Shown: positions 2,667-35,223 of the stretch, in pieces | Layout of the letters: each line of letters begins with the position of its first letter | Position numbering within the stretch: the stretch's first letter is position 1 | From: an uncultured Acidobacteriota bacterium | GTDB lineage: Bacteria > Acidobacteriota > Thermoanaerobaculia > UBA5066 > Gp7-AA6 | Direction of reading: 5' to 3' | Length of the DNA: 64,000 bases | Assembly: GCA_963723535.1 (NCBI GenBank) | Contig: CAVRRE010000015.1 | Coordinates: forward strand, 105,445-169,444 | Program-made: the position numbers and the translations under genes | The notes under the pieces: model-generated | What the model was told of the DNA's origin: nothing | Seen by the model: the letters and a program-made list of their open reading frames with translations, nothing else | Database searches by the model: none

Positions 2667-2770
2667 CGAGCTTCGATCATACGCGATCGGAGAAAACATC
2701 CGACGGCGCGATATCTTCTGCGCGGAACTCCGGAGGAAACGATGATCTCGCGGAACTCGTAGGCGGCGCC

Positions 2771-8499: not shown

Positions 8500-8545
8500 G
8501 TCCCGTCCGATTGTAGTCGATCTCGTTCGAAGGCCCCTCGGTAGA

Positions 8546-10451: not shown

Positions 10452-10524
10452 TCCGGCCCGGGAAAGCACCGACTCGTCCCCAACCCGAGCCGGGACGGCG
10501 TGCCTCGTCCACAATCCACGCGCC

Positions 10525-11592: not shown

Positions 11593-11646
11593 CCCGCCCG
11601 GCCGGCGGCTGCGGTAGAGTTCGCGCCCAGACAAACGGAGCGAACA

Positions 11647-13860
11647 ATGCGAAAGATCGTCCTGTGCGCACTGGCCGGGCTCCTGCCCGGCTTCGTCCTG
11701 GGCCAGACCTCGCCGTTTCTGGACCCGAAGGTCGAGCGCGCGCTTCTCAACGAGATCTCGGGCGACCTCGCCTTCGAGACCCTCCGCATCACGACCCAGT
11801 GGCACAAGCCCTCGGGCTCCGAGGGCTTCTTCGCCGTCGCCCGCGAGGTCGAAGCGCGGGCGAAGGCCGCCGGGCTCGCGGACGTCCGCTGGATCGACCA
11901 GGCCGCCGAACACATCAACTGGACCTGCCGCCGGGGCGAGGCCTGGCTGCTCGAGGGCCCGGGCGCCGGCGCCGCCGAGACCAAGATCGCCTCGTACGCC
12001 GACGTCGCCGTGTCGGTCGCGGACAACTCGCGGCCGGCGAGCGTCACGGCCGAGCTGGTCGACGTGGGCTCCGGGGAGACCGCCGCCGCCTATGCCGGCA
12101 AGGACGTGCGCGGAAAGATCGTCCTCGCCTACGGCAGTCCGGCGCTGGTCATGGAGCAGGCGGTCTGGAAGCGGGGCGCGCTCGGCATCCTTTCCTGGAC
12201 CTCCTCCCGACTCAATCACCTCGCGGACTCCGCCGACCAGGTGGGCTGGACGTCCGTTCCCGAGGAGGACGGGCCGAAAGGCGAGAAGACGACGTTCGCG
12301 ATCGTCGTCTCCGCGCGCGAGGGCAAGGCTCTGGTCGAACGCATGAGCGGCGAGGGTTCTCGGCGCTGGGGAGCCGCGGCCGGCGGAGACAAGGCGGCCG
12401 GACCTCTGCGCCTGCGCGTGGAAATCGATTCGGTCGTCCTTCCGGAGAAGAAGACGGCCATGGTCGAAGCCCGGATCCACGGAACCGACCCGTCGCTGCC
12501 CGAAGTCGTTCTGACCTCCCACCTCCAGGAGGAGAAGTTCTCGGCCAACGACGATCAGTCCGGCGTCGCCAGCATGCTGGAGATCGGACGGGCGCTTACG
12601 CGCCTCATCGCCGAGGGAAGACTCCCCCGCCCCCGCCGCAGCATCCGCTTCTGGTGGGCCGACGAGATCTATTCCGAGTACCGCTACTTCGCCGACCATC
12701 CCGGCGAGGAGAAGAAGTTTCTCGCGAACCTGAACCAGGACATGGTCGGCGCGAAGCAGTCCGCGGGACATCGCACCCAGTTCATGGCGCGGACTCCGTG
12801 GGCGGTGCCGTCGTATCTTTCCGACGTGCAGCAGAGCATCCTCGATGCCGTCGTCCGGGGCAACAACGCCTACCTCGCCGCCTGGCAGGCGCAGTCACCG
12901 GCGCCCGGCCAGGCTTTCACGAAACCGATCTTCGCCCGCCTCGGGACGCGCGAGCCTTACCGCGCGCAGGCGGTTCCCTATTTCGACTCGACGGACCACC
13001 TCGTCTTCAACGATCCCTGGGTGCGGGTGCCCGGAACGTCGCTCACCAACTGGCCGGACGAGTACATTCACTCTTCGGTCGACGATCTCTGGCAGATCGA
13101 CCCGACCCAGCTCAAACGCAACGCTTTCGTGGTCGCGGCGACGGCCTGGTGGCTCGCCAACGCCGAGGCGAAGGACGTGCCCTTCCTGGCCGCCTTCGTC
13201 GCGGCGCGCGGAGCCGAGCGGATGGCCCGGGACCTCGCGACGGCCGACGCCTGGGTCCGCGAGGGAACCGGCACCGAGGAGGAGCGTCGGCGAGCGGCCG
13301 CGGATCTTCTGGCCGTGTCGCAGAGCGTGGAAGAGTCGGCGGTCGCGTCGGCCCGAGCGGTCGGGCCGGCTCCCGAGACCGCCGTCGCGGACGGAGTCGC
13401 CGGGGTCCGTTCGGCTGGAGCCGCGCTTGCGGCGCGACTGTCTCCCCGCCCTACCGGCGAAGACCCGGCGCTCGCCCGGCTCGCCACGAGGACGCCGCGC
13501 TTCGCGGTCGACTCCCTCGACGCCTGGATGGCCCTCGAGGCGCGCGTGAAGGACAAGCGCGAAGCCGATGGCCGGGCCGCGCGCGAGAAGAAGGAGAAGG
13601 AAGAGGCGGCGAAGCCGTCCGCGAAGGCCGGTGCCCGGGCCCCGGCTGCGCCCCCCGACGACACCGCGCCGAAGCTCTCGCCCCTCATGAGCTCGGCGGC
13701 CATGACGTGGATCGACGGCAAGACCAACGCGGCCGAGATCGCGCGCCGCGTCTGCGCGGAAGCGCTGTCGGCCGGCTGGTGGTACTACGGGCCGACGACT
13801 CCGGCCCTCGTGGAGAAGTTCCTCGAAACGCAGGCGAAGGACGGCCTCATCGCCTGGTGA
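11647..13860 (+). CDS. M28-family metallopeptidase (PA-domain-containing aminopeptidase-like), intact, secreted
   Basis: 737 aa in a single frame with an N-terminal signal peptide MRKIVLCALAGLLPGFVLG. PA-domain-like region (GKDVRGKIVLAYG). M28 motifs include LTSHLQEEKFSANDDQSGVASMLEI and NLNQDMVG. Confidence 0.75.
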   Translation: MRKIVLCALAGLLPGFVLGQTSPFLDPKVERALLNEISGDLAFETLRITTQWHKPSGSEGFFAVAREVEARAKAAGLADVRWIDQAAEHINWTCRRGEAWLLEGPGAGAAETKIASYADVAVSVADNSRPASVTAELVDVGSGETAAAYAGKDVRGKIVLAYGSPALVMEQAVWKRGALGILSWTSSRLNHLADSADQVGWTSVPEEDGPKGEKTTFAIVVSAREGKALVERMSGEGSRRWGAAAGGDKAAGPLRLRVEIDSVVLPEKKTAMVEARIHGTDPSLPEVVLTSHLQEEKFSANDDQSGVASMLEIGRALTRLIAEGRLPRPRRSIRFWWADEIYSEYRYFADHPGEEKKFLANLNQDMVGAKQSAGHRTQFMARTPWAVPSYLSDVQQSILDAVVRGNNAYLAAWQAQSPAPGQAFTKPIFARLGTREPYRAQAVPYFDSTDHLVFNDPWVRVPGTSLTNWPDEYIHSSVDDLWQIDPTQLKRNAFVVAATAWWLANAEAKDVPFLAAFVAARGAERMARDLATADAWVREGTGTEEERRRAAADLLAVSQSVEESAVASARAVGPAPETAVADGVAGVRSAGAALAARLSPRPTGEDPALARLATRTPRFAVDSLDAWMALEARVKDKREADGRAAREKKEKEEAAKPSAKAGARAPAAPPDDTAPKLSPLMSSAAMTWIDGKTNAAEIARRVCAEALSAGWWYYGPTTPALVEKFLETQAKDGLIAW

Positions 13861-13910
13861 GACGCTCACGCCCCTCGACGCGAGCGCTCTCCCGTGAAAG
13901 CATCGGCCGC

Positions 13911-14861
13911 ATGGCGGTGAAGAAAGCGGTCAAGCGCCGCAAGAAGGCCGAGGCGAAGTCCCGAGGCATCGAAGCGAGCGAGGCCGCGGAGGGAACGCCG
14001 TCCCCGGCCGCCACGGCCCTCGCCGAAGCCGTCCGCGAGGATGGCGGAACGGTGCTCGCGGTCTACCGCGATCCCCTCGGCGGACACTGGCAGCTCCTGG
14101 CCGCGCTGCCCATCGAACGGGTCGAGCCGACGCCCTTCCAGCGGGACCTCTCCGAGACCCACGTCAAACGGCTGACCGGCGTCATCGACGCCCTCGGCCG
14201 CTTCCTCGACCCGATCATCGCCGTCCGCGGCCCCGACGGGAAGTACCTCACCCCCAACGGCCACCACCGCCTGGCCTCGCTTCGCAACCTCGGCGCGCGC
14301 TCCGTGACGGCGCTCGTGCTTCCCGAGCCCGAAATCGCCTACAAGATCCTGGCCCTCAACACCGAGAAGGCGCACAACCTCCGCGAGAAGTCGCTCGAGG
14401 TCATCCGCATGGCGCGGGACCTCGCCGAGCGCGACCGCCTTGCCGAGACCGACTACGCGCTCGAGTTCGAAGAGCCCGCGTTCCTGACGCTCGGCGTCTG
14501 CTACGAGAAGAACGGCCGGTTCGCCGGCGGCGCGTACCACCCGATCCTCAAGCGGATCGACGCGTTTCTCGATCAGCCTCTCGCGAAGTCTCTCGAGGTC
14601 CGCGCCGCCCGCTCGGAGAAGCTCGGCGAGCTCGAGGAGGCCGTGTCCGCCGCCATGAAGGCCCTCAAGGACAAGGGCTTCGACAGTCCCTACCTGAGAA
14701 CCTTCGTCATCGCCCGCATCAATCCCCTCCGGTTCCAGCGGGGGGCAAAGGCCGACTTCGACGAGACGATCGAAAAGATGCTGGCGTCCGCCCGGAAGTT
14801 CAAGGCCGACTCCGTCAAGCCCGAGCAGCTCGCCCGGGCGGGCGGTTCCGCCGAGGAGTAG
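13911..14861 (+). CDS. ParB/sulfiredoxin-fold (ParB N-terminal-like) domain protein with a Lys/Arg-rich N-terminal tail
   Basis: MAVKKAVKRRKKAEAKSRG..., then IERVEPTPFQRDLSETHVKRLTGVIDALGRFLDPIIAV...LTPNGHHRLASLRNLG (ParB/Srx-like arginine/histidine patch), then a helical C-terminal domain. No adjacent parA. Confidence 0.6.
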   Translation: MAVKKAVKRRKKAEAKSRGIEASEAAEGTPSPAATALAEAVREDGGTVLAVYRDPLGGHWQLLAALPIERVEPTPFQRDLSETHVKRLTGVIDALGRFLDPIIAVRGPDGKYLTPNGHHRLASLRNLGARSVTALVLPEPEIAYKILALNTEKAHNLREKSLEVIRMARDLAERDRLAETDYALEFEEPAFLTLGVCYEKNGRFAGGAYHPILKRIDAFLDQPLAKSLEVRAARSEKLGELEEAVSAAMKALKDKGFDSPYLRTFVIARINPLRFQRGAKADFDETIEKMLASARKFKADSVKPEQLARAGGSAEE

Positions 14862-14865
14862 CCGA

Positions 14866-15670
14866 GTGAGCCCTTCCCGCCTTCCCCTCCGCTTCGCCGC
14901 ACTGGGGCTCCTCGCCGCCCTGCCCGGGCTCGCCCAGCCGGCCGCCCCGGACCTGCGGACCGCGAAGCTCGTGGATCTCACCCATGCCTTCGACCGCGAC
15001 ACGATCTACTGGCCGACGTCGCCGTCCGCGTTCGAGCTCAAGACGCTGGCCGACGGCCAGACGCCCGGAGGCTGGTTCTACCGGTCGAATGCGCTCTGCA
15101 CTCCCGAGCATGGCGGCACGCACCTCGATGCGCCGAGCCACTTCGCGAAGGGCGGGCTCTCCGCCGACCAGATCCCCCTGCGCCGGCTCATCGCGCCGGC
15201 CGCGGTCCTCGACGTGCGTGCCGCGGCGGCGAAGGACCCCGACTATCGCCTGACGCTCGACGACGTGAAAGCGTGGGAGAAGGCGCACGGCGCCATCCCC
15301 GCCGGAACGATCGTGCTCCTGCGGACGGGCTGGAGCCTCCGCTGGCCGAACCGCAAGGCGTACCTCGGCGACGACACGCCGGGGGACGCCTCGAAGCTCC
15401 ACTTCCCCTCGTACGGAGAGGACGCGGCGAAGCACCTGGTCTCGGTCCGGAAAGTCGGCGCGCTCGGGGTGGACACGGCGTCCATCGACTATGGCGCGTC
15501 GAAAGACTTCGTGGTGCACGTCGATCGCCAACGGAGCCGATGTGTTCGGCCTCGAGAACCTCGCCCGCCTCGACGAGCTGCCGGAGTGGGGCGCCTGGGT
15601 CGTCGCGCTGCCGATGAAGATCGCCGGCGGATCGGGCGGGCCTCTCCGGATCGTCGCGCTCGTCCCGTGA
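14866..15670 (+). CDS. putative cyclase-family (kynurenine formamidase-like) hydrolase, secreted; frameshift near 15520
   Basis: Signal peptide MSPSRLPLRFAALGLLAALPGLA. Cyclase-family motifs LVDLTHAFD...HGGTHLDAPSHF...GVDTASID. The C-terminus GADVFGLENLARLDELPEWGAWVVALPMKIAGGSGGPLRIVALVP* lies in a shifted frame. Its stop overlaps the kdd GTG start. Confidence 0.7.
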
Positions 15671-16714
15671 CGGCGCCGCATCCCTTCGGACTCCACCGCT
15701 CGCTCGATCCGCCCGGCGTCCTGCCGCAGGTGGCCCGCCGGCTCGATGCGACCCCGCGCGCGCTCGAGAACGAGATCGCCGTCTCGGTGCGCGCCCTCTC
15801 GATCGACTCGGCGTCCTTCCGCCAGCTTCGCGAGACCGAAGCGGCGACGAAGGAAAGCATCCGCGACCAGGTCGCCCGGATCGTGCGCGAGCGCGGCAAG
15901 ATGCAGAATCCGGTCACGGGCTCGGGCGGAATGCTTCTCGGCGAAGTCGCCGCGGTCGGGACCGCCCATCCTGCCGCCGGGACGCTCGCGCCCGGAACAC
16001 CCATCGCGACGCTCGTCTCGCTGACGCTCACGCCGCTGCATCTCGACTCGATCGGCGCCGTCCATGCGGCGACCGAGCGCGTCGAGGTTTCGGGCACCGC
16101 GATCCTTTTCGCCCGGACGCTCTTCGCCCGGCTGCCCGAAGACTTTCCCGAAGAAGTCGCCCTCGCCGCCTTCGACGTCGCCGGCGCGCCGGCCGGGGTT
16201 CTGCGCGATGCCCGGGCCGGCGACACCGTCCTCGTGATCGGCACCGGCAAGGCCGGCCTGCTGTGCCTGGCGGCCGCGCGGGAGAGAAGTCGGCGCGGCG
16301 GGCCGCGTTCTCGCCGTCGAGCCCGGCCCCGCGGCCGCCGAGCGGGCCCGGGCGCTCGGCTTCGCGGACGCGGTCTTCCAGCTCGACGCGCGGGATCCCG
16401 TGGCGATGCTCGACGCGATCGGGGCGGCCACGAACGGCCGCCTCGCCGACCTCGTCGTCAACGTCGCCAACGCGTCCGGTACCGAGTCCGCGACCGTCCT
16501 CTGCGCCCGCGACGAAGGCGCCGTGATCTTCTTCGGGATGGCGACCTCTTTTTCCGCCGCGGCGCTCGGCGCGGAGGGCCTCGCGAAACCGACGCGGCTC
16601 TCGATCGGCAACGGGTTCGTGCCCGGCCACGACCGGACCGCCCTCGACCTGCTCCGGCGCCACCCGGCGCTCGCCCGGGCTTTCGCGTCGCTCTCGGGCG
16701 GCCCTCCCGCGTGA
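15667..16714 (+). CDS. kdd: L-erythro-3,5-diaminohexanoate dehydrogenase; two frameshifts (~16270, ~16380)
   Basis: VTAPHPFGLHRSLDPPGVLPQVARRLDATPRALENEIAVSVRALSIDSASFRQLRE...MQNPVTGSGGMLLGEV...GDTVLVIGTGKAGLLCLAAAR, with C-terminus MLDAIGAATNGRLADLVVNVANASGTESATVLCARDEGAVIFFGMATSF...GFVPGHDRTALDLLRRHP. Matches the Kdd family of the lysine fermentation pathway, and kamDE/kal/kce follow directly. Confidence 0.75.
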
Positions 16715-17340
16715 CGCACGCGGCGGCCGAGCTCGCCGAGACTCTCCGCGCTTCGGGCGCCCGCCGCGTCGCGTTCCTCGGCCTCGCGAAGAACGCCGGC
16801 AAGACGACGGCGCTGACGGCCGTGCTCGCCGAGCTCCACCGCTCGGGTGTCGTCGCCGGGACGACCTCGGCCGGCCGCGACGGCGAGGAATTCGACGCCA
16901 TCACGGGCGAGCCGAAGCCGAGATTTCGCCTCTACCCCGGCCAGCTCGTCGCCTCCGCGGAGACGACCTTCGCGGCGGCGACGTTTCCGGTCTCGGAGCT
17001 CGCGACGCTCCCCTTCTCGACCCGGTTCGGTCCCGTCCAGCTCCGACGGGCCGAGGGCGAGGGCGAGATCGAAGTCATCGGGCCGTCGACGGCCTCGCAG
17101 CTGGCGCGCACCGCCGCGGCGCTCGAAGCGGCCGGCGCGGAGCTCGTGCTGCTCGACGGTGCGGTCGGGCGGCGCGCCTTCGCGGCCGGACGGGTGTCCG
17201 ACGGGATCGTCCTCTCCGTCGGAATGTCGGCCGGCGAGACCCTCCCCGCCGTCCTCGCCGCGGCGGCCTCGGCCGTCGAGCTCATCCAGCTGCGGCGGCC
17301 CGAGGACGACGCGCCCCGGAGGGATTCGAGGGTGCCGTGA
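16711..17340 (+). CDS. P-loop NTPase-like protein of unknown function embedded in the lysine operon
   Basis: GTG start overlapping the kdd stop. Walker-A-like FLGLAKNAGKTTALTAVLAELHRSG. 209 aa, translationally coupled on both sides. Confidence 0.5.
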   Translation: MTHAAAELAETLRASGARRVAFLGLAKNAGKTTALTAVLAELHRSGVVAGTTSAGRDGEEFDAITGEPKPRFRLYPGQLVASAETTFAAATFPVSELATLPFSTRFGPVQLRRAEGEGEIEVIGPSTASQLARTAAALEAAGAELVLLDGAVGRRAFAAGRVSDGIVLSVGMSAGETLPAVLAAAASAVELIQLRRPEDDAPRRDSRVP

Positions 17341-17615
17341 CGGGCGCCGCCCTGCGCGCGGACTTCCCGTCGCCGGGCGAGGCGCTCGTCGCCGAAGACT
17401 TCACGGCGATCTTCCTCTCGCCAGCCGACCGCCGCGAGCTCGCCGAGCGCGGCGTGCGCCTCGCCGTCCGCAAGCCCGCGCGCCTTCTCGCCGTGACCGC
17501 GAATCCCACCGCGCCGGCTCGCCCGCCGCTTCCGGCCGCGCGCTTCCTGGAAGCCGTCGCGCGAGAGATGCCGGGCGTGACGATCTTCGACCTGGTGGCT
17601 GACCTGCGGTCATAG
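17337..17615 (+). CDS. small hypothetical protein (92 aa) in the lysine operon; may be the C-terminal part of the preceding P-loop protein if an indel is present
   Basis: GTGA overlap with the upstream stop. MTGAALRADFPSPGEALVAEDFTAIFLSPADRRELAERGVRLAVRKPARLL... Confidence 0.35.
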   Translation: MTGAALRADFPSPGEALVAEDFTAIFLSPADRRELAERGVRLAVRKPARLLAVTANPTAPARPPLPAARFLEAVAREMPGVTIFDLVADLRS

Positions 17616-17644
17616 CAGGCCCGCGGCTATACTTTTCGCCGCCG

Positions 17645-19204
17645 ATGGCCTCCAAACTGGGCCTCTCTCCGGAGACGATCGCGGGCTGCCGCCGGCTCGC
17701 CCGCCAGGTCGCCGACGGCGTCCGCGCCGAGACGGAGAAATTCACGACGGTCTCGACGGAACGCACCGTTCTCCGCCTCCTCGGGGTGGACGGCGTCGAC
17801 GCCGACGAGGTCCCGCTCCCCAACCGGATCGTCGAGTCCCTTCAGGCGTGCGGGAAGCTCGGCCGGGGCTCCGCCGTCTGGATGGGCAGCGCCCTGGCCA
17901 CGGGCGCTCCGACCGTGGCGGAAGCGGCTCTCCGGCTCTCGGATCCCGGGCGGGCCGCCGCGCAGGCCGAACATCCCCGGTGGCGCGAAACCGTCGCGCC
18001 CCACGTCGAGGCCACGGTCGCGCGGATCCGGGGAATCGCGCGGAGCGCGAGCGGCGCATGGCCGGGCACCCCCCGGAGGAGAAGCCGCTGCTCTACGCGA
18101 TCGTCGCGACCGGCAACATCCACGAGGACATCGTCCAGGCGGACGCCGCCGCGCGGGCCGGCGCGCAGTGCATCGCGGTCATCCGCTCGACCGCCCAGTC
18201 CCTTCTCGACCACGTCCCCTACGGCGCCACGACTTCGGGGTTCGGAGGCACCTACGCCACCCAGGAGAACTTCCGGCTCATGCGGGCCGCTCTCGACGCG
18301 ATCGAGCCGGAGATCGGCCGCTACGTGCGCCTCGTGAACTACTGCTCCGGGCTCTGCATGCCCGAGATCGCGGCGATGGGGGCCCTCGAGCGGCTGGACA
18401 TGATGCTCAACGACGCGCTCTACGGCATCATCTTCCGCGACATCAACCCGTTGCGCACCCTCATCGACCAGAACTTTTCCCGCCGGATCAACGCCGTCGC
18501 CGGAGTCGTCATCAATACGGGAGAGGACAACTACCTGACGACCGCCGATGCGGTCGAGCAGGCCCCGGCCGTCCTCGCCTCGCAGTTCATCAACGAGCGG
18601 CTCGCGAAGGACGCCGGCCTCGAGGACTGGCAGATCGGGCTCGGGCACGCCTTCGAGATCGACCCGACCCTCGAGGACGGCCTGCTCTACGAGATCGCCC
18701 AGGCCGAAGCGGCGCGCGAGATCTTTCCCGACGCTCCGCTGAAGTACATGCCGCCGACGAAGCACATGACCGGCAACGTCTTCCGCGGCTACCAGCAGAA
18801 CACGCTCTTCGCGCTGACCTCGGTCGCGACCCGGCAGTCGATCCACCTCCTCGGCATGCTGACCGAGGCCCTCCACACGCCGTTTCTCCACGACCGGTGG
18901 CTCGCCATCGACCAGATGAAGACCCTCCGGTCGAACGCCCGGCACCTCGCGGACGAGATCCGATTCGCCCCCGATGGCCGGATCGTCCGCCGGGCGCGCG
19001 AGGTGCTCGCCGGCGCCGAGACGATCCTCGCCCGCGTCGCGAGCCACGGCCTCTTCGCGGCGCTCTCCGAAGGTGTCTTCGCGGACACGCGCGCGCCGCA
19101 AGGACGGCGGCCGCGGTTACGACGGCGTCCTGCCCAAGGACGCGGCGTACGCCAACCCGTTTCTGGAAGCCTGGACGCACGAGCTCGCGGGAGCGCGGGC
19201 GTGA
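17645..19204 (+). CDS. kamD: lysine 5,6-aminomutase alpha subunit (adenosylcobalamin/PLP-dependent); frameshifts near 18050 and 19090
   Basis: Strong similarity to Clostridium/Fusobacterium KamD: [22 protein letters not shown]...PLPN; [19 protein letters not shown]...[37 protein letters not shown]...[38 protein letters not shown]...[14 protein letters not shown]...[13 protein letters not shown]...[12 protein letters not shown]. The C-terminus ...[24 protein letters not shown] lies in a shifted frame. Confidence 0.85.
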
Positions 19205-19959
19205 GCACCCCGCGGCCGATCCGCCCCTACGGGGACAAGAAGAACGACGGCGCGGTCCAGGTCTCCTTCACGCTTCCCCTCGCCCGCTCGGCGGTCGCGA
19301 CGGAGGCCGCCAAGCGCTACGCCGCCAAGATGGGACTGCGGGAGCCCTACGTGACCCTCGCCGAGGCGATCGCCCCCGAATTCACGTTCTTCGTCGTCTA
19401 CGGGCGCGCCACCCACGACATCGACGTCGCCGCCATCACGGCCGAGGAAGCCCCGGAGGGCGCGCTCTCGCGCGAGCAGATCGACGAGGAGATCGCCCGG
19501 CGCTTCGGCCGGCGCCTGGTCGTGCTCGGCTGCGCCCTCGAATCCGACGCCCACACGGTCGGCCTCGACGCCATCTTCAACATGAAGGGCTTCGCGGGCG
19601 ACTACGGGCTCGAGCGCTACCACGGGTTCGACGCCCGCAACCTCGGCGCCCAGGTCCCGGTCGCGGAGCTCGCCCGCCTCGTCCGCGAAACCAGGGCGGA
19701 CGCGGTGCTGGTGTCCGCGACGGTGACCCAGAACGACATCCACGTCCGCCACATGACCGATCTCGTCGACATGCTCGAGGCCGAACGGCTCCGCGACCGG
19801 GTCGTCCTCATCGCCGGCGGAGCCCGTGTCGATCACGCCCTGGCCAAGGAGCTCGGCTACGACGCGGGCTTCGGCCCCGGCACGACGGCTTCGCGCGTCG
19901 CCGGGTTCCTCCTCGAGGAGCTCTCGCGGCGGCACGGCCTCCTCGGAAGCGAGCGATGA
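19201..19959 (+). CDS. kamE: lysine 5,6-aminomutase beta subunit (B12-binding), intact
   Basis: [21 protein letters not shown]...EFTFFVVYG...[34 protein letters not shown]...[62 protein letters not shown]. Contains the DxHxxG B12-binding motif and aligns along its length to KamE. GTGA overlap with kamD. Confidence 0.88.
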
Positions 19960-20339
19960 CCGAGCGGGTGCAGCTTCGCCTCCGCGTCGGAGCCGAGCAG
20001 GCGCACTACGGCGGCGGTCTCGTGGACGGCGCGTTCGTTCTGAAGCTCTTCGGCGACGCCGCCACCGAGCTCCTCATCCGCCACGACGGCGACGAGGGGC
20101 TCTTCCGCGCCTACTCCGCGGTCGACTTTCTCGCGCCCGTCCACGGAGGCGACTATCTCGAGGTCGAGGCCGAGCTCACGCGCGTCGGCAACACCTCGCG
20201 CGAAATCCGATTCGAGGCGCGCAAGGTCATCGCGCCGGGCGACGGATCCGCCGCGAGGCTTCTCGATCCGCCCCTGGTCGTCGCCCGCGCCACGGGCACC
20301 TGCGTCGTCCCGCTCGAGAAGCAGAAAGGCCGAAAGTGA
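19956..20339 (+). CDS. kal: 3-aminobutyryl-CoA ammonia-lyase (hotdog fold), intact
   Basis: [92 protein letters not shown]...[11 protein letters not shown] matches Kal of the lysine fermentation pathway. ATGA overlap with kamE. Confidence 0.8.
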
Positions 20340-21166
20340 GCGATGCGCTGCTCATCACCGTCGCGGGCGTGGGCGCCGAGGTGATGCGGTCGCAGCAGCC
20401 GGCGCTGCCTCTCCTGCCCGAGGAGGTCGGCGCGGAGTATGCGCGGGCTTACGACGCGGGCGCGACGATCGGGCACGTCCATGGCCGGAAACCCGACGGG
20501 ACGCCCACCCAGGACCTCGAGACGTTCCGGGCGTATTCCGAGGCGATCCGCGAGCGCTGCCCGATCATCCAGCAGTTCTCGACGGGAGGCGCCGTCGGCA
20601 TGGGGGTCGAGGAGCGGATCGCCGCCCTGGAGCTTCGCCCGGACATGGCGACGCTCACGCTCGGCACCTGCAACTTCGGCGACGACATCTTCGAGAATTC
20701 CCTCCCCACCATCCGGACGATCCTGGCGCGCATCCGCCAGCACGGGATCGTTCCCGAGCTCGAGATCTTCGACGTCGGAATGCTCGCGACCGCGGACGTC
20801 CTCTTCGCGAAGGGCCTCCTGACTCCCCCGGCCCACTTCGATTTCGTGCTCGGCGTGCCCGGCGCGGCCGCGGCCACCGCCGAGAACCTGACGCACTTCG
20901 CCCGCTCGATTCCGGCGGGCTGCACCTGGACGGTCGCCGGAATCGGACGCCGTCAGACGGCGATGGCCGCCATGGCCATCGCGATGGGAGGCCACGTGCG
21001 CGTCGGGTTCGAGGACAACATCTACTACCGCAAGGGCGAGCTCGCCGACTCGAACGCCCGTTTCGTCGAGCGCGTCGTCCGCATCGCCCGCGAGCTCGGG
21101 CGGGAGCCCGCCTCGATCCAGGAAGCGCGCCAGATCCTGCGCATGCCGTCGGCGTCCGCCGCTTGA
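20336..21166 (+). CDS. kce: 3-keto-5-aminohexanoate cleavage enzyme (BKACE / DUF849 family), intact
   Basis: GTGA overlap with kal. ...[10 protein letters not shown]...[56 protein letters not shown]...[18 protein letters not shown]...[37 protein letters not shown] is typical of the BKACE family. Confidence 0.8.
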
Positions 21167-22563
21167 GCGCCGCGGGCGCGCCGCAGGAAGGCCCGAAGGC
21201 CGGAGCGCCGGAGCTCGCCCGGGGCCTCGGCCTCTGGGACACGAGCCTCATGGTCCTCGGGCTCGTCATCGGCGGCGGCATCTTCCTCACTCCGCGAGCA
21301 TCGCGAAGGCGATTCCGAACGAGGGCTGGATCCTCGGCCTCTGGATCGTCGGGAGGCCTCCTCGCGATCGTCGGCGGACTCGTCTACGCCGAGATGGGCG
21401 CGATGATGCCGAAGGCCGGCGGGATGTACGTCTTCTTCCGGGAGGCGTTCGGGGAGCTGCCGGCCTTCCTCTACGCCTGGGTGGCCTTCTGGGTCATCCT
21501 CATCGGCTCCGACGCCGCCGTGGCGGTCGGCTTCGCACAGTACTTTTCGGTCTTTTTCCCATCGCTCTCGAACGCGAACGTCGTCCTGACCGCTCGGCCC
21601 GATCGCGATCACCGCGGCGCAGCTCGTCGCGGTCGCCCTCGTCGTCGTGCTCTCGGCCTCCCACTACGTGGGGGTCCGCGAGGGCGCCCGCATCCAGGGC
21701 CTCTTCACGTCGATGATCGTCCTCGCGCTGCTCTGGATCGCGGTTGGCGGAGCGTTCGCTTCGAGCGGCCGGCCGGAAGCCGCGAGCCGCGCTGACGCCC
21801 GCGGCGGCGATCTCCTTCGCCGGCGTCGGCACGGCGCTGGTGGCGATCTTCTGGACCTACTACGGCTGGAACGAGATCGTCGCCGTCGCCGGCGAGGTCG
21901 CGAACCCGAAGCGCAACCTGCCGCTCGCGCTCATCGCCGGGACGGGCCTCGTGACCCTGCTCTACGTCGCGGTCAACGCCGTCTTCCTCAAGGCGATCCC
22001 GGCCGCCGAGATGGCCGGCGTCGGCGAGCCGGCCGCGGTCGCCGCGACCCGCCTCTTCGGCAGCGGCGCCGCGTTCCTCATCGCGCTCGGCCATCACCGC
22101 CGCGGCCGCCGGCTGCACCTCGGCCGGGATCGCTCCCGGGCCGCGCATCGTCTACGCCCTCGCCAAGGACGGGCTCTTCCCGGCGGCGTTCGGGAGGGTC
22201 CATCCTCGCTTCCAGACGCCCTCGTTCGCGATCGTCGTGCAGGCGGTCTGGATGTCGCTGTTGTGCCTGTCCGGCCGTTACGACCAGCTCTACACCTACG
22301 CCACGTTCTTCGTCATCCTGGCCTACGCGGCGACCGGCCTCTCGCTCTTCGTGATGCGGCGGCGGCGCCCGGACCTCCGCCGCCCGTACCGCTGCTGGGG
22401 CTATCCCGTCGTTCCGTTTGTCTTCGTCTGCGTTCAGTCTCCTGCTCGCCGCCAACACCCTGCGCGAGCAACCCAGGGAGACGCTCGCCGGGATCGGGAT
22501 CCTGCTGCTCGGCCTGCCGGTCTACTTCAGCATGCGCCGGCGCCGCCGCAAGGCGGCTTCGTG
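21163..22563 (+). CDS. APC-family amino acid permease (candidate lysine or beta-lysine importer), multiple frameshifts
   Basis: TTG start overlapping the kce stop. GLWDTSLMVLGLVIGGGIFLTP...LAIVGGLVYAEMGAMMPKAGGMYVFFREAFGELPAFLYAWVAFWVILIGSDAAVAVGFAQYFSVFFP...LTPAAAISFAGVGTALVAIFWTYYGWNEIVAVAGEVANPKRNLPLALIAGTGLVTLLYVAVNAVFL...VHPRFQTPSFAIVVQAVWMSLL...LPVYFSMRRRRRKAAS*. At least five frame changes. Confidence 0.7.
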
Positions 22564-24703
22564 AGAGCCGTCGGCGGAGCGGCCGCCGCGTGTTTGCTCG
22601 CCGCGCTCGCGATTTCGGCCGGGCCAGCTTCGCCTCCGCCCCTGACCGGCTTCACGCCGGAGCGGAGCGCGTGGCAGCGGGAGTACGAGAAGCGCCTGCT
22701 CGCCCTCCCGCAACCCGCGGAGTGCGAAGCGATCCATCGCGAGCTCACGCGCGCGCCGCATATCGCCGGCACCGAGGGCAACGCGCGCGTCGCCGAGTAC
22801 CTCGCCGCCGAGTACCGCAAGGCCGGGTTCGAAGTGGAGATGCCGGCCTACGAGGTTCTCCTCTCGTATCCGAAGAGCGCGACGCTCGAGATCGTCGGCG
22901 ATCCGCCGATCGCTCTGGCCCGCGGGGAGCTGCCGATCCCTGAGGATCCGGACACCGCCGTGCCCGAGGCCGCCATCCCCTGGAACGCCTACTCCCCCTC
23001 GGCCGAGGTCACCGGAGAGGTGGTCTACGTCAACTTCGGGAGCGCCGAGGACTACGAACGCCTCCGCGCCCTGGGCCTCGAGGTCCGCGGCAAGATCGTC
23101 CTCGCGCGCTACTCCCACGGCTATCGCGGCGGCAAGGCGCTCGAGGCCGAGAAGCGCGGGGCGCTCGCAATCCTGGTCTACTCGGATCCGATCGAAGACG
23201 GCTGGTTTCGGGGCCCCGTCTATCCGTCAGGGCCCGTGGGGACCGGCCTCCCACTTCCAGCGCGGGTCGAACGTCTACGACTTCCTCGTGCCCGGAGACC
23301 CGTTGACGCCGGGCTGGGCCTCCACGCCCGACGCGAAGCGCATCCCGATGGCGGAGGCCGAGAGCCTGCCGAAGATCCCGATGATGCCCCTCTCCCCGCG
23401 GGACGCGGCCGAGATCCTCGCCCGGCTCGGCGGTCGCACGGTCCCGGACGCTTCCTGGCAGGGCCTCGCCGTGGCCGACACGTTCCGCATCGGGCCCGGG
23501 CCCGTCCGCGTGCACCTGAAGATCGAGAACACGCGCGAGAAGCGCACCATCAAGAACGTCATCGCCACGCTCCGGGGGTCGGAGATGCCGGAAAAGAAGG
23601 TCCTCCTCTCGAACCACTTCGACGCCTGGATCTACGGCGCCGTCGACCCCTCGTCGGGGACCGCGTCGATGCTGGCGCTCGCGCGCGCTCTCGGCCGGCT
23701 GGCGGCGGATGGCTATCGCCCCCGCCGCACGATCGTCATCGGCGAGTGGGACGCCGAGGAGTACACGCTGACCGGGTCCACGGAGTGGGGCGAGCAGTAC
23801 GAAAAAGATCTTCGGCAGAGCGCGGTCGTCTGCATCAACGTGGACGCCTCCGCCCTGGGACGGGAGTTCGCGGCCTCGGCGTCGCCCCTGCTCGTCTCGG
23901 CGATCCGCGACGCGGCCCGGGACTTCCCGGATCCCTCGACGCCCGGCAAGAGCCTCGCGGACTCCTGGCGCGCGACGGCGGCGGCCGCCGGAGCGGACGG
24001 CGGGGAGCTGCCGGTGGCGATCCTCGGGAGCGGCTCGGACTACACGGTGTTCTTCAACCATCTGGGCATCGCCTCGGTCGACCTCGTCTTCGACGGCCCC
24101 TACGGCGTGTACCACTCCGTCTACGACACGCACCGATGGATGGCCACGCAGGGCGACCCCGGGTTCGTCTACCACGCGGCCATGGCGAAGTACGCCGGAA
24201 TGCTCGCCCTCCGCTACGCCAACGCCGACGTTCTTCCCTTCGACGCCGCGGCCTACGGCCGGGAGATCGCGAAATACGCGGAAGGCCTCGAGGCTCTTCC
24301 CGGTGCGGAGTCCCTCCGGCCGGGGCTGCGGGAGCTCGTCTCCCGGGCCCGCGCCTGGAGCGAAGCCTCGGCCAGCGCGCAGAAGCAGATTGCCGCGCGC
24401 GTCGCCGCCGGTGAGAGCGGCGCCCTGAGCCTCGGCGATGCCAACGCCTGGCTGCTCTCCCTCGAACGCTCTCTCATCGACGCACCGGGGATTCCGGGCC
24501 GGCCGTGGTTCCGGCATCTCGTCTACGCTCCCCTGCCGTCGTACGAAGCCGAGACTCTCCCCGCGATCCGCGAGGCCATCGTGGAGGGTCGGACCGAGTC
24601 GGCGGGTCTCCAGATCCAGCGGCTCTCCGACAAGCTGTCGACGGCCGCCGCCTCGGCCCGCAAGGCCGAGTCGCTTTTCCGGCCGAAGCCGAAGTCCCGA
24701 TGA
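22560..24703 (+). CDS. M28-family peptidase related to glutamate carboxypeptidase II / N-acetylated-alpha-linked acidic dipeptidase (PSMA-like), frameshift near 23240
   Basis: GTGA overlap with the permease stop. N-terminal hydrophobic anchor followed by PA/M28/dimerisation architecture: ...GKIVLARYSHGYRGGKALEAEKRGALAILVYSDPIEDGWF...|...GDPLTPGWASTPDAKRIPMAEAESLPKIPMMPLSPRDAAEIL...KVLLSNHFDAWIYGAVDPSSGTASMLALARAL...IVIGEWDAEEYTLTGSTEWGEQ...GSGSDYTVFFNHLGIASVDL...GVYHSVYDTHRWM. Confidence 0.75.
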
Positions 24704-24741: not shown

Positions 24742-25477
24742 CTAGCGCGCGGCCGACGCGGGAGGCGCGCTGGCGGCGGCCGGGAGAGGGCTCGGTACCC
24801 CGGCCTTCCACCACGTCATGATGCGGTCGACGTAGGCCACGGTCTCCCGGTACGGCGGGACGCCGCCGTACGTCTCGACCGCGCCCTCACCCGCGTTGTA
24901 GGCCGCCAGCACGAGCTCGGGCCGGTGACCGAAGCGGTCCACGAGCTCCCGGAGGTATTTCACTCCTCCCCGCACGTTCGCGGCCGGGTCGAACGACTGA
25001 GCGCACCGAGAGCCTCTTCGCGGTCGCGGGCATGAGCTGCATGAGGCCGCGGGCGCCCTTGCGCGAGACGGCGCGCGGCTGATAGTTCGACTCGGCGCGG
25101 ATCAGGGCCGACACGAGCGAGGCGTCGATGTCGTACTCCTTCGCCGCCTTCTCGATGATGGCGTCGTACTCGGTTCCGAAGAGCGCCCGGCGCTCCGCCG
25201 AGTACGAGAGGTCGAACGGCCCGCCGGCGTCGAGCAGGTCGGGCTCCACGAGGACGGTGTCGACCACGACCTCGTCGTCCACGATCCGTTCCACGCGCCC
25301 GAGCTCGACGCGATAGCTCCCCCCGCCGGGCAGCGAGATCTCGACCTCTTCGGCATGCAGCCGGTAGGACGCCGCCTTCACGACGCGCCCGTCCTCGAAG
25401 ACGATCAGCTCCGCCACGGCCGGAGAAGCCGACAGCGCCAGGCCCAGGAGGGCCGTCACCCGTGCGAAGCGGAGCAT
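24742..25477 (-). CDS. lytic transglycosylase (SLT-domain) with signal peptide, frameshift near 24990
   Basis: MLRFARVTALLGLALSASPAVA, then ...ASLVSALIRAESNYQPRAVSRKGARGLMQLMPATA (SLT catalytic region) | ...KYLRELVDRFGHRPELVLAAYNAGEGAV. Confidence 0.7.
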
Positions 25478-25530
25478 TCCGGACGCAAAACGTCCGCTCC
25501 CGGCCGGGCATTCCGGGCATTTCGGCGGCC

Positions 25531-26545: not shown

Positions 26546-27829
26546 TCAGACGCGGCCCGCGGTCTCGGGCGTCAGCCGCTGCACGACCTCGAGGATCTCG
26601 CCGTCATCGAGAACGTGGTCGCTCTCCTTGGCGGCCCGGAAGATCGCGTCGACGAGCTCCGCCCGCGGCTCCAAGCCGTGGCTCTCGAGCCAGCACTGGA
26701 CGTTCGAGAGCCCGCTCATGGGCCCGACCTCGATCACCTGATGGCGCCCGACCATGGAGGCCGGCACACCCGAGTACACCCGGTCCGAGAGCCACTCGTC
26801 GCCCTTCTTGCGGGCCTTGATGATGGCGGCCGCGTGCACGCCGGTTCCGGTGCGAAACGCGTCGCGTCCGACGATCGGGTAGTTGTCGGGGATGCGGACG
26901 CCGGTCGCCTCCGAGACGGCCGCGCAGTAGTCGTTCAGGCGCGTCAGGTCCCGGTCGATCCAGCCGAGGAGCTGGAGGTTGACGAGCAGCTGATCCATGG
27001 GCGTGTTGCCGACGCGCTCGCCGATGCCGAGCCCGCAGGCGTGGACCCGATGCGCTCCGGCCTCGAGGGCCCAGAGCGCGTTCGTGACGCCGAGCCCGCG
27101 GTCCTGGTGGCCGTGCCAGTCGACCTTGACCTCCGGGTTGACCTCGTCGACCACACCCGAGACGAAGGCCACGAGGTTGCGCACGCCGTTGGGAGTGGCA
27201 TGGCCGACCGTGTCGCAGACGCAGACGCGGCCCGCGCCGGCGCGGATCGCCGTCGCGTACATCCGGCGGACGTGATCCGGGTGCGCCCGGGTCGTGTCCT
27301 CCGTGACGTACATGACCGGAAGCCCCGCGCGCACCGCCAGGGACACGGCGTCTTCCGAGAGTCGGAGCATCTTGTCGAAATCCCAATCCTCGGTGTACTG
27401 GCGGATCGGAGAGGACCCGATGAAGCAGGACACCTCGATCGGGATCCCGACCTTCTGCGAGATCTCGATGATCGGCACGATGTCGGCCGCGACGGTGCGC
27501 GCGGCGCAGTTCGGCCGGATCTTGAGCTTGCCGCGGACGATCTCCTGCGCCAGCCGCGTCACGGTCTCGACGACGTGCGGGCCGGCCCCCGGAAGCCCGA
27601 TGTCGGCCGAGTCGACGCCGAGGGCCTCCATCAGGTGGAGGATGCGGATCTTCTGCTCGATCGAGGGGCTCTTGACGGAGGGCGACTGCAGGCCGTCGCG
27701 CAGCGTCTCGTCGTCGAGCTCCACGCGCCCGCGCTTCGGGAAGACCGCGCCCCCGGCGCGGTTCCAGTCGTAAATCAGGTCGGAGTCCGGCGGGTGCAAG
27801 AGAGTGTTCTCCCGGAGAAAGTCTAGCAC
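26546..27829 (-). CDS. 2-isopropylmalate/homocitrate/citramalate synthase-family (DRE-TIM metallolyase) protein lacking the C-terminal regulatory domain, intact
   Basis: 427 aa: ...LDDETLRDGLQSP...HGHQDRGLGVTNALWALEAGAHRVHACGLGIGERVGNTPMDQLLVNL (HxH...GERxGN metal and substrate motifs). Confidence 0.7.
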   Translation of the reverse strand: MLDFLRENTLLHPPDSDLIYDWNRAGGAVFPKRGRVELDDETLRDGLQSPSVKSPSIEQKIRILHLMEALGVDSADIGLPGAGPHVVETVTRLAQEIVRGKLKIRPNCAARTVAADIVPIIEISQKVGIPIEVSCFIGSSPIRQYTEDWDFDKMLRLSEDAVSLAVRAGLPVMYVTEDTTRAHPDHVRRMYATAIRAGAGRVCVCDTVGHATPNGVRNLVAFVSGVVDEVNPEVKVDWHGHQDRGLGVTNALWALEAGAHRVHACGLGIGERVGNTPMDQLLVNLQLLGWIDRDLTRLNDYCAAVSEATGVRIPDNYPIVGRDAFRTGTGVHAAAIIKARKKGDEWLSDRVYSGVPASMVGRHQVIEVGPMSGLSNVQCWLESHGLEPRAELVDAIFRAAKESDHVLDDGEILEVVQRLTPETAGRV

Positions 27830-27866
27830 CCCGCGCGGCGGCGCGGCGGGGCCGGCGGACGGGCGT

Positions 27867-29045
27867 TCAAGGCTGCGGGGCCCCGATCGAGAAATCGGCC
27901 CCGATGAAGAAGGTGAATTCCGGCGATCCGAGGGGGTCGGAGAGGCTGCCGCCGAAGATGCCGCGGCGGAGCACGTCGAGCGTCTGCGTCGGAAGGACGC
28001 CGGCCGAGTCGGTGAGCGTCACCGTTTCGTCTCCCCAGGCGAGGCGCGCGCCGACGCGCGCGCGGATGGCCGGACTGAATGCGTAGCGATAGGTCATGTC
28101 GACGAAGAGCTCCTCGTTGTCGGAAAACGGATCGAAGCCCTGGTCGAACATTTCGACTTCCCGGCCGAGAACGGCGAGCGAGACGAACGGCAGCTCCTGG
28201 CGGTCATAGGTCGTCGAGAGCATGACCTCGGACTGCGACCAGCAGTACGCGGCCGAGAGCCGGTAGGCCTGGAGCGTCGCCCTCTCGTCCGTGTCCCGGT
28301 CCTGGAAATTGGGAAAGCTCTCCCGATGCACGTCCAGGTCTCCGCTCGCGTATTCCCCGTGGAGAACGAACGTCCAGGGCGGCGCGGGCCGGAAGCGGAC
28401 CTCGGCCTCCCCGCCGAAGATGTTGCCGGAGGCATCGTAGAAGGATCGGGCGGTCGCGTTGTAGCCCGTCAGCTTCGTCCAGTGGAAGGCGGCCGCGGCC
28501 TCGAGGCCCCGCCACCGGTGGCGCCAGCCCGCCGCCGCATCGATGCGCTGGGAGGAGAGGTCCCTGGCCTCCGAGAGCTCCTGGTTCGTTCCTCCGAAGT
28601 TGATGACGTCGGTCGAGCGGTTGTTCCGGCTTTCGCCCGCCAGCTCGATGGAGTCCGCCGGCGTCACGGGAAGGCGCGCGAGGAGCGCGAAGTTCTCGGC
28701 GCGGCCCGTTCCGTTGGAGAGGACGATCGGCAGGCCCAGCTCCGGCTGGTCGCGTGGGCGTGCCTGCTCGTCGTGAGATGTCCCGAACGCGGCGCGAGCC
28801 CGCCACTCGAACGCGGGAGTGCCGGCGCCGAGCCCCGCCGGGGCGTACCGCGCGTATCCCATCCCGACGAGCACGAACTTGGGCGTCACGTCCGAAGTGT
28901 CCACCGTGATTCCGACCTCCCACCGGCGCGCGAGAGTGGCGTAGGAGAAGCCGAGGTCGCCACCCAGCCCGGGCCGCGGGGAGAGCCCGGTGCCGAGCAG
29001 CAGGCTCGCGCAGAACACACAGGCGCTGACGAGATCGATGCCCAT
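27867..29045 (-). CDS. hypothetical outer-membrane beta-barrel protein with signal peptide, intact
   Basis: N-terminal signal peptide. Alternating amphipathic beta-strand pattern with Gly/aromatic girdles across 392 aa. No recognisable enzymatic motif. Confidence 0.45.
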   Translation of the reverse strand: MGIDLVSACVFCASLLLGTGLSPRPGLGGDLGFSYATLARRWEVGITVDTSDVTPKFVLVGMGYARYAPAGLGAGTPAFEWRARAAFGTSHDEQARPRDQPELGLPIVLSNGTGRAENFALLARLPVTPADSIELAGESRNNRSTDVINFGGTNQELSEARDLSSQRIDAAAGWRHRWRGLEAAAAFHWTKLTGYNATARSFYDASGNIFGGEAEVRFRPAPPWTFVLHGEYASGDLDVHRESFPNFQDRDTDERATLQAYRLSAAYCWSQSEVMLSTTYDRQELPFVSLAVLGREVEMFDQGFDPFSDNEELFVDMTYRYAFSPAIRARVGARLAWGDETVTLTDSAGVLPTQTLDVLRRGIFGGSLSDPLGSPEFTFFIGADFSIGAPQP

Positions 29046-32326: not shown

Positions 32327-33520
32327 TCAGGCGGCCGACTCCAGAACGACGGCGATGCCCTGACCGCCGCCGATGCATGCGCCCGCGAGGCCGTAGCGCA
32401 CGCCGCGCCGACGCATCTCCTTCAGGAGCGTCAGGGTCAGCCGGGTGCCGCTCGCGGCCAGAGGATGCCCGAGGGCGATGGCGCCCCCGTTGACGTTCAG
32501 CTTTTCGACGTCCAGGCCCAGCTCCCGGACGACTCCCAGGATCTGGCCGGCGAAGGCCTCGTTGATCTCCCAGAGGCCGATGTCGTTCTGTGAGAGTCCC
32601 GCCTTCGCGAGCGCTTCGCGCGCGGCCGGCGCGGGTCCCAGGCCCATGAGCTCCGGCTCGACGCCGACGACTCCCCAGGAGACGATCCGGCCGAGCGGCT
32701 TCTTCCCGCGCGCCGCGTCGGGCGAAGCAACGACCACCGAAGCCGCGCCGTCGACGATCCCCGAGGCGTTGCCGGCCGTGACGGAGCCGTCCTTGCCGAA
32801 GGAGGGCGGCAAAGCCGCGAGCCCTTCAAGCGTCGAGTCGGGACGCATGTGGTCGTCTTTCTCGACGCGCACGCTCTTCCGGCCCTGCTTGACCTCGACC
32901 GGGACGACCTCCTCCGAGAGGCGGCAGGCCGCCCAGGCCGCCGCCGTCCGCTGCTGGGAGCGGAGAGCGTAAGCGTCCTGTTCCGCGCGCGTGATGCCGT
33001 ATTTCGCGGCGACGCGGTCCGAAGTCTGCGCCATGTAGAGCCCGCAGTAGGAGTCCAGCAGCGCGACCATCAGAGTGTCCTCCAGCTGGCCCTGGCCCAG
33101 CCGGAATCCCTTGCGCGCGCCCCGGATCACGTGGGGCGCCTGGGACATGTTCTCCATCCCGCCGGCCAGGACCGTGTCCGCCTCGCCGAGGAGAATCCGC
33201 TGGGCCCCCTGGACGATGGACTCGAAGCCCGAGCCGCACAGACGGTTCACCGTCAGGGCCGGAACCTCTTTGGGAACGCCGGCCTTGAGCCCGACGTGGC
33301 GCGCGCCGTAGATCGCGTCGCCGGAGGTCTGGAGCACGTTGCCGAAGATGACGTGGTCGACTTGTCCCGGCTCGACCCCGCTCCGTTTGAGAGCCTCGGT
33401 CGCCGCGTGGACACCGAGATCGATAGCCGTGGTGTCGGCGAACGCGCCGTTGTAGTCGGCCATCGGGGTGCGGGCGCCGTCGAGAATGAAGACGTCGGTG
33501 GAAGGAGCCGTGGAAGCCAT
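32327..33520 (-). CDS. acetyl-CoA C-acetyltransferase (thiolase II), intact
   Basis: ...NRLCGSGFESIVQGAQRILLGEAD (Cys nucleophile) ...GNASGIVDGAASVVV...NGGAIALGHPLAASGTRL...GACIGGGQGIAVVLE (His/Cys C-terminal motifs). Confidence 0.9.
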   Translation of the reverse strand: MASTAPSTDVFILDGARTPMADYNGAFADTTAIDLGVHAATEALKRSGVEPGQVDHVIFGNVLQTSGDAIYGARHVGLKAGVPKEVPALTVNRLCGSGFESIVQGAQRILLGEADTVLAGGMENMSQAPHVIRGARKGFRLGQGQLEDTLMVALLDSYCGLYMAQTSDRVAAKYGITRAEQDAYALRSQQRTAAAWAACRLSEEVVPVEVKQGRKSVRVEKDDHMRPDSTLEGLAALPPSFGKDGSVTAGNASGIVDGAASVVVASPDAARGKKPLGRIVSWGVVGVEPELMGLGPAPAAREALAKAGLSQNDIGLWEINEAFAGQILGVVRELGLDVEKLNVNGGAIALGHPLAASGTRLTLTLLKEMRRRGVRYGLAGACIGGGQGIAVVLESAA

Positions 33521-35152: not shown

Positions 35153-35223
35153 AAACTTCGGCGAGCGAATGGTTTCCGGCCGCCCGGCCTTCGTTTACAC
35201 TTACAGGGTTTCACGGCTGACGG

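Follow-up and report, generated by a model that had tools for sequence, protein, structure and literature searches.

The window analysed here, a 64,000-nucleotide stretch of DNA from an uncultured member of the Acidobacteriota, contains a co-directional string of nine genes on the + strand that runs from GTG 14866 to TGA 24703. Pfam and NCBIfam searches find in this string a PF04199 cyclase-family protein, KDD, KamB, KamD, KamE, KAL, KCE, an APC permease and a PA/M28/TFR_dimer peptidase, all encoded in DNA of ~70% GC within a window whose GC content is uniform at about 70%. The string is a conserved, largely translationally coupled operon, and we consider it likely to encode the form that the known lysine-degradation route via 3,5-diaminohexanoate takes in the Acidobacteriota, with the class Thermoanaerobaculia as the most likely host lineage. 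The nine genes are listed below (nt, nucleotide; aa, amino acids).

14866..15670, + strand: secreted cyclase-family, isatin-hydrolase-like metal amidohydrolase (Pfam Cyclase PF04199, E=1.7e-41); 1-nt insertion at 15523
15667..16714, + strand: kdd, L-erythro-3,5-diaminohexanoate dehydrogenase (NF052381); 1-nt insertion at 16286/16287
16711..17615, + strand: kamB, lysine 5,6-aminomutase reactivase subunit with P-loop GxxxxGKT (NF052386); 1-nt deletion near 17325
17645..19204, + strand: kamD, lysine 5,6-aminomutase alpha (Lys-AminoMut_A, NF052384); deletion at 18030 and insertion at 19092 (1 nt each)
19201..19959, + strand: kamE, lysine 5,6-aminomutase beta (NF052385); intact
19956..20339, + strand: kal, ammonia lyase for 3-aminobutyryl-CoA (NF052388, Pfam 4HBT); intact
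20336..21166, + strand: kce (NF052387); intact
21163..22564, + strand: APC-superfamily amino-acid permease (~460 aa in relatives; AA_permease_2 pieces in three frames); at least 6 single-base insertions or deletions (indels)
22561..24703, + strand: secreted peptidase resembling glutamate carboxypeptidase II (GCPII, PSMA), Pfam domains PA, M28 and TFR_dimer; 1-nt insertion near 23226-23233

Curated models identify the pathway enzymes. Broken genes were scored as stitched (frame-repaired) proteins, and NCBIfam equivalog cut-offs served as thresholds. Stitched KDD reaches 226 bits on NF052381 (cut-off 200), stitched KamD 743.9 bits on NF052384 (cut-off 600), KamE 331.2 bits on NF052385 (cut-off 280) and KAL 170.6 bits on NF052388 (cut-off 160). 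KCE also exceeds its threshold, and the kdd, kamD, kamE, kal and kce assignments of an earlier note, made from the raw sequence, thus all stand after frame repair. Intact KDD orthologues of relatives have PF26370 KDD_N on record. Of the solved structures, 2y7d, the characterised Kce of Cloacimonas, matches KCE best (E=3.9e-71), and the metal segments HxH and GFEDN align between the two.

The aminomutase subunits are equally distinctive. The Pfam Lys-AminoMut_A match over kamD covers profile positions 1-129 in one frame and 130-485 in a second, then returns to the first for 482-507. OAM_dimer and B12-binding domains are found in KamE by Pfam, and its best solved-structure matches are lysine 5,6-aminomutase beta chains (8t0v, 9q1a and 1xrs; E ~1e-80, full-length alignment), with the B12 segments DAHTVG (DxHxxG) and NMKG conserved in the structure alignment. 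The ornithine aminomutase model OraE gives only 128 bits, where its cut-off is 800. The OraSE alternative, which had been named beforehand as the refuting outcome, therefore failed, KamD and KamE both scoring above the lysine cut-offs; judged by sequence, KamDE is a lysine 5,6-aminomutase and not an ornithine 4,5-aminomutase.

KamB had been hidden by a frameshift. Two ORFs (open reading frames) left unassigned in the earlier note (16711-17340 and 17337-17615) are the halves of one broken kamB; the NF052386 model hits both, in different frames. The orthologues in three related loci (L001, L084 and L085; L numbers denote the loci compared) are single intact genes of 301-302 aa.

The genes surrounding this enzymatic core were also identifiable. 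Closest among solved chains to the cyclase-family protein are 8f9x and the isatin hydrolase 5nmp; the metal motif HxGTHxDxPxH and a signal-peptide-like N-terminus can be seen by eye. The intact permease orthologue of L001 matches TIGR00909 and TIGR00911 at subfamily level only. Within the terminal gene the peptidase domains are split by frame, with Pfam PA in one and M28 plus TFR_dimer in another, and the N-terminus of the protein looks signal-like. With a match of E=5e-106 between the L001 orthologue and human GCPII chains, the earlier description of this gene as a PSMA-like peptidase is upheld.

The operon character of the string was likewise upheld. Seven 4-nt stop/start overlaps are genuine (15667, 16711, 19201, 19956, 20336, 21163 and ~22561) and are also kept in the intact relative L001. 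Eight such junctions had been proposed earlier; of these, the GTGA at 17337 lies inside kamB and is no gene boundary, while the last, given as 22560, is a GTGA at 22561. KamB and kamD do not overlap and are separated by a 29-nt spacer (17616-17644). A promoter and terminator scan of 11.3-25.6 kb returned no promoter-like site, and terminator-like sites were no commoner than in shuffled sequence. Two context genes lie upstream.

11647..13860, + strand: M28 peptidase, 737 aa, intact (Pfam Peptidase_M28, E=7.7e-15)
13911..14861, + strand: ParB N-terminal-domain protein, 316 aa, with a GHHR motif (84% identity by tblastn to a 312-aa protein of L001)

The ParB-like gene stops 4 nt before 14866 and is kept upstream of the operon in most relatives, where its homologues are annotated as ParB family or ParB N-terminal domain-containing proteins, some with PF02195; the protein also weakly matches SerK, a serine kinase of the ParB/Srx fold. 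The gene string probably starts here, upstream of 14866, with the ParB-like gene as the operon's first gene or its regulator. The M28 peptidase is syntenic in most acidobacterial loci, and the earlier claim of a flanking M28 peptidase holds for this upstream copy. Its L001 orthologue (1323-3529) is itself frameshifted into ORFs of 399 aa and 344 aa, while the window copy is continuous.

That the genes read clearly, as had been claimed, did not withstand comparison with relatives. Continuous ORFs are confined to kamE (19201-19959), kal (19956-20339) and kce (20336-21166), and the other six of the nine genes (cyclase, kdd, kamB, kamD, permease and peptidase) carry at least 12 single-base indels. 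When L001 proteins are placed on the window by tblastn, one frame change appears in each of the cyclase gene, kdd, kamB, the peptidase gene and a downstream SLT gene, two in kamD and at least four in the permease gene, whose alignment falls into five segments. The permease indels lie at 21290, 21350, 21592, ~21760-21795, 22089 and 22428. Alignment to two and then nine relatives gave 11 window-unique single-base indels in conserved coding context (8 insertions and 3 deletions), mostly outside long homopolymers. The insertion at 15523 is missing from L084 and from 8 of the 9 other aligned relatives; the ninth, the long-read metagenome-assembled genome (MAG) L004, has an extra base there too.

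Several comparisons point to a technical origin for these shifts. L084, a JGI metagenome contig that is 95.5% identical to window positions 6452-18933 (12.5 kb), has intact genes, and its length differences from the window amount to 12 single-base indels and nothing else. It is free of all four operon indels within its range (15523, 16287, 17325 and 18030). Among ~45 related loci, 16 of the 24 from Nanopore ("MFD contig_N") have frameshifts in operon genes, against none of the 21 of short-read style. The MFD MAGs are Nanopore-only Flye assemblies that received one round of Medaka polishing to cut indel errors (PMC12313526). Frameshift clusters are patchy in other long-read loci as well: L014 has one in the operon and nine in its flanks, L045 has 13 in the operon and four in its flanks. 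Divergence of the window is not excessive either, identity being 78.7% to L001 and 77.5% to L003, compared with 76.3% between L001 and L003. Protein identity stays high after each shift, and the operon genes of the window contain no in-frame stop codons. Because L084 is intact, the shifts are confined to Nanopore loci and patchy there, and the window shows no extra divergence, the operon indels are almost certainly long-read assembly errors rather than biology.

Other parts of the window show similar differences. Relative to L084, guaA (GMP synthase, - strand) has single-base insertions at 7055, 7066 and 7193, and further single-base indels lie at 8020, 8058, 8552 and 8651 (region 6452-8700, guaA and its neighbours). 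Indels inside a housekeeping gene such as guaA indicate sequencing error across the window and not in the operon alone. The SLT-domain (lytic transglycosylase) gene at 24805-25516 (- strand) has a 1-nt insertion at ~25000 relative to L001. From 40000 to 64000, codon-position GC plots show short, often-switching coding frames; lipA in this region (43041-43871, - strand) is a single intact frame, and such a crude plot is thus by itself no evidence of frameshifts.

A common gene order (ParB-like, cyclase-family, kdd, kamB, kamD, kamE, kal, kce, permease, peptidase) was found in ~45 species-level Acidobacteriota/Thermoanaerobaculia genomes from soil and sediment. On the long contigs L001 and L003 gene content and order agree with this, essentially every gene being a single ORF, and the nearest locus, L004, shares 86% DNA identity with the window. 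A database search with KCE returns thousands of matches, and the proteins already bear these names in the public annotation of Thermoanaerobaculia MAGs. Vital et al. 2014 (PMC3994512) described the lysine pathway in many phyla, Actinobacteria and Thermotogae included. Given this distribution and the ~45 Acidobacteriota species with the operon, the surprise expressed earlier at finding the pathway in a high-GC host was overstated.

Some loci depart from the common plan. L027 (3657-5226) has an ABC-transporter ATPase and a protein without Pfam family between the cyclase gene and kdd, and a gene of ~270-295 aa without Pfam match lies between kamB and kamD in several relatives (L040, 6115-7002; also L028, L034, L037 and L043). 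The extra genes in L027 and L040 were considered as aminomutase substitutes and set aside, since they encode the ABC ATPase and proteins without Pfam family. Outside the Acidobacteriota, loci L049-L063 and L069 (Tumebacillus, Fermentithermobacillaceae, Bradymonadia, Myxococcales, Pseudothermotoga) mostly have adjacent kal and kce and lack kamDE, and usually kdd as well, within 10 kb; two of these loci have kce only, and L059 has kamDE and kdd. This pattern suggests that the kal-kce couple works in other contexts or on other substrates.

Beyond the operon the opposite strand encodes, in order, an SLT protein, a Xer-like integrase, an HMGL-like enzyme, a 390-aa protein, a crotonase (ECH), a 3-hydroxyacyl-CoA dehydrogenase (HCDH), a small protein and a thiolase. 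Three of these bear on the pathway, and the earlier report of nearby thiolase, crotonase and dehydrogenase genes was confirmed by tblastn and Pfam.

29061-29837, - strand: crotonase (86% identity by tblastn to ECH of L001)
29838-30695, - strand: 3-hydroxyacyl-CoA dehydrogenase (91% identity by tblastn to HCDH of L001)
32330..33520, - strand: acetyl-CoA acetyltransferase (thiolase), intact (Pfam Thiolase_N E=4.6e-84, Thiolase_C E=3.7e-48)

ECH and HCDH lie downstream of the operon in nearly all acidobacterial loci long enough to reach them, and the thiolase follows the dehydrogenase in L001 as well. The fused dehydrogenase/crotonase described earlier turned out to be an artefact: the single ORF at 29058-30695 is the product of one extra C in a conserved GTGA overlap at 29837, and ECH and HCDH are separate genes in 14/14 relatives examined. 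Nearly all relatives conserve both the HMGL-like enzyme (~417-427 aa, RDGLQS motif) and the 390-aa protein without Pfam family, which together span 26558-29045 (- strand); the latter has, by eye, the look of an outer-membrane barrel.

Two further regions of the window were noted. A second APC-type permease at 2783-3831 (+ strand) is ~36% identical to the operon permease and is likewise in two frames, and the counterpart upstream genes of L085 encode an AA_permease followed by an Aminotran_1_2 aminotransferase; permease and aminotransferase may form another amino-acid utilisation pair. The genes at 35221-38741 (+ strand), for a PEGA-domain Ser/Thr protein kinase and, after it, a large TPR/PEGA protein, are seemingly unrelated to the operon.

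A comparison with characterised systems places the operon within a known family of clusters. The classical lysine fermentation cluster (Fusobacterium nucleatum, Clostridium sticklandii and Intestinimonas; PMC3149608, PMC4697335) was compared through L072 of Intestinimonas aquisgranensis. The two share orthologous KamD, KamE, KamB, KDD, KCE and KAL (42-62% identity to the Oscillospiraceae proteins) and the same chemistry from beta-lysine to crotonyl-CoA and acetoacetate. As the earlier note had suspected, gene order differs: L072 has kamB-kamC-kal-kce-kdd-kamA-kamD-kamE, with matches to the KamC model NF052383, whereas the window has kdd-kamB-kamD-kamE-kal-kce. Unlike the classical cluster, the window operon lacks kamA and kamC in cis, adds the ParB-like gene, the secreted cyclase-family hydrolase, the APC permease and the GCPII-like peptidase, and has neighbours that suggest beta-oxidation to acetyl-CoA rather than butyrate formation.

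A closer match is provided by a Proteobacteria MAG (L064) and a Clostridia MAG (L070), which have kdd-kamA-kamB-kamD-kamE-kal-kce and no kamC. Relative order is the same as in the window, and in all three KamB is the sole reactivase subunit. These two loci hold kamA between kdd and kamB, whereas acidobacterial kdd and kamB overlap by 4 nt and leave no room for it; they also have no secreted hydrolases or permease adjoining the cluster. The acidobacterial order is thus the L064/L070 arrangement minus kamA, with a secreted hydrolase in front and a permease and peptidase behind. The window has kamDE, kdd and kce in common with the variant of Candidatus Cloacimonas acidaminovorans (Perret et al. 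2011, PMC3149608), the source of 2y7d, but that variant uses a 3-aminobutyryl-CoA aminotransferase (Kat) where the window has a canonical KAL above its NF052388 cut-off. The D-ornithine 4,5-aminomutase pathway (OraSE, Ord, OrtAB) employs a member of the same B12/PLP (pyridoxal phosphate) aminomutase superfamily as KamDE; the window differs from it in its low OraE score and in having no Ord or OrtAB genes.

From these identities we infer substrates and a direction of flux. The secreted isatin-hydrolase-like amidohydrolase and the GCPII-like and M28 peptidases would probably release an amino-acid substrate outside the cell, and the APC permease would import it as lysine or beta-lysine. KamDE, dependent on adenosylcobalamin and PLP and presumably kept active by the P-loop protein KamB, would move the terminal amino group of beta-lysine to yield 3,5-diaminohexanoate, which KDD would convert to 3-keto-5-aminohexanoate. 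KCE is predicted to combine this product with acetyl-CoA to give 3-aminobutyryl-CoA and acetoacetate, and KAL to release ammonia from 3-aminobutyryl-CoA, leaving crotonyl-CoA. The conserved divergent crotonase, 3-hydroxyacyl-CoA dehydrogenase and thiolase could carry crotonyl-CoA to acetyl-CoA; their presence as neighbours suggests an oxidative rather than a butyrate-forming end. The gene for KamA, the lysine 2,3-aminomutase that makes beta-lysine from L-lysine in the first step, is not nearby and presumably lies in another part of the genome.

A number of results weigh against this reading. KCE clears NF052387 by just 3 bits (384.8 against a cut-off of 382) and stitched KamB falls just below its own threshold (208.4 bits on NF052386, cut-off 210). 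The BKACE family is functionally diverse, with members that act on varied substrates, and the enzymes could accordingly act on another diamino or beta-keto acid, either ornithine-type or some other BKACE substrate, outside lysine catabolism; literature searches found no experiment on the Acidobacteriota members of the operon. We regard a different substrate as most improbable, given that five independent equivalog models of one pathway are satisfied together, that OraE scores far under its cut-off, that the substrate as well as the metal segments of KCE align with 2y7d, and that kal, kce, kdd and kamDE co-occur as in characterised clusters. Among the larger ORFs scanned between 8.5 and 39 kb, with no search aimed at them, there was no acetoacetate-activating enzyme and nothing of the type of butyryl-CoA dehydrogenase (Bcd)/Etf or acetoacetate:butyrate CoA-transferase. 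The remaining negatives concern the first step. No KamA-type CxxxCxxC radical-SAM (S-adenosylmethionine) motif occurs in the whole 64 kb window, where the sole real CxxxCxxC match is LipA, and three KamA queries run by tblastn gave no match in the window or in any acidobacterial locus (±10 kb of kce). KamC, the MutS-like ATPase of the reactivase, was similarly missed by tblastn in the window and the acidobacterial loci (±10 kb), and it was not found in L059, L064 or L070 either. Queries for kamA, kamB and kamC were drawn from Firmicutes, Thermotogota and Proteobacteria loci; of these, the Firmicutes and Thermotogota loci have KamA and KamC, and the Proteobacteria locus has KamA. The gene set that had been called complete is so from beta-lysine to crotonyl-CoA and acetoacetate, but not for the L-lysine step, with kamA and kamC absent in cis. 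Alternatively, the operon might serve to take up and break down beta-lysine that is already formed, or a beta-lysine/lysine conjugate that the secreted isatin-hydrolase-like enzyme and the GCPII-like peptidase cleave outside the cell, in organisms without any KamA. This would fit the consistent absence of kamA and kamC in cis across ~45 species when Firmicutes, Thermotogota and Proteobacteria clusters keep kamA inside, an order that matches L064/L070 with kamA removed, and the translational coupling of the pathway to a secreted amidohydrolase, a permease and a secreted peptidase whose animal relatives cleave unusual peptide bonds. On the other hand, the absence of kamA rests on ±10 kb in relatives and 64 kb here, kamA is frequently unlinked from the cluster in other bacteria, and four loci (L010, L020, L028 and L034) retain the pathway without the cyclase gene. 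We consider such a beta-lysine operon unlikely.

Whether the pathway works at all in this strain is a separate question, and here the distribution of indels is the adverse observation: about 10-12 fall in the 9.8 kb operon and 1-2 in the 6.5-9 kb compared flanks. This density, together with the position of most indels outside long homopolymers, would suit real frameshifts in a recently inactivated pseudogene cluster, above all in the permease. Pseudogenisation was dropped as the favoured explanation after the comparison with L084, the split between long- and short-read loci and the patchiness in other long-read loci were considered. Every length difference from the independent L084 contig is a single base, three of them in guaA; reading frames beyond each shift encode proteins of high identity without in-frame stops, the window branch shows no excess divergence, and shifts among relatives are a feature of Nanopore MAGs. 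Real inactivation is thus very improbable, and we are highly confident that the operon is functional in the organism.

The pathway and all its enzymes are already known, with curated equivalog models in existence; new here are the lineage and the architecture of the operon, which lacks kamA and kamC in cis and couples the pathway to secreted hydrolases and a permease. Literature searches found no paper on this pathway in Acidobacteriota, and those on the KamB/KamC reactivase returned nothing useful. The analysis also carries a warning of method: a raw-sequence reading passed over more than a dozen frameshifts and took an ORF fusion made by an indel for a real fused enzyme, and low-coverage Nanopore MAG sequence needs frame-aware comparison before claims are made about gene structure. 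For further work, the operon is a source of candidate aminomutase systems with KamB only and of high-GC enzyme variants that beta-amino-acid biocatalysis could use.

For the biology of these bacteria, the lysine-degradation reading adds a large uncultured lineage of soil and sediment Acidobacteriota to the range of a well-characterised pathway of amino-acid degradation. The conserved operon, in which this pathway is linked to secreted hydrolases and a permease, fits a lifestyle of protein or necromass scavenging. A more specialised picture is doubtful: the Thermoanaerobaculia module might be kamA-less, kamC-less and beta-lysine-specific, with secreted hydrolases that free beta-lysine, an unusual lysine conjugate or a lactam from environmental compounds, a permease that imports the product, and enzymes that oxidise it to acetyl-CoA. 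If that proved true, the module would serve to scavenge a non-proteinogenic amino acid and would not be a lysine fermentation.

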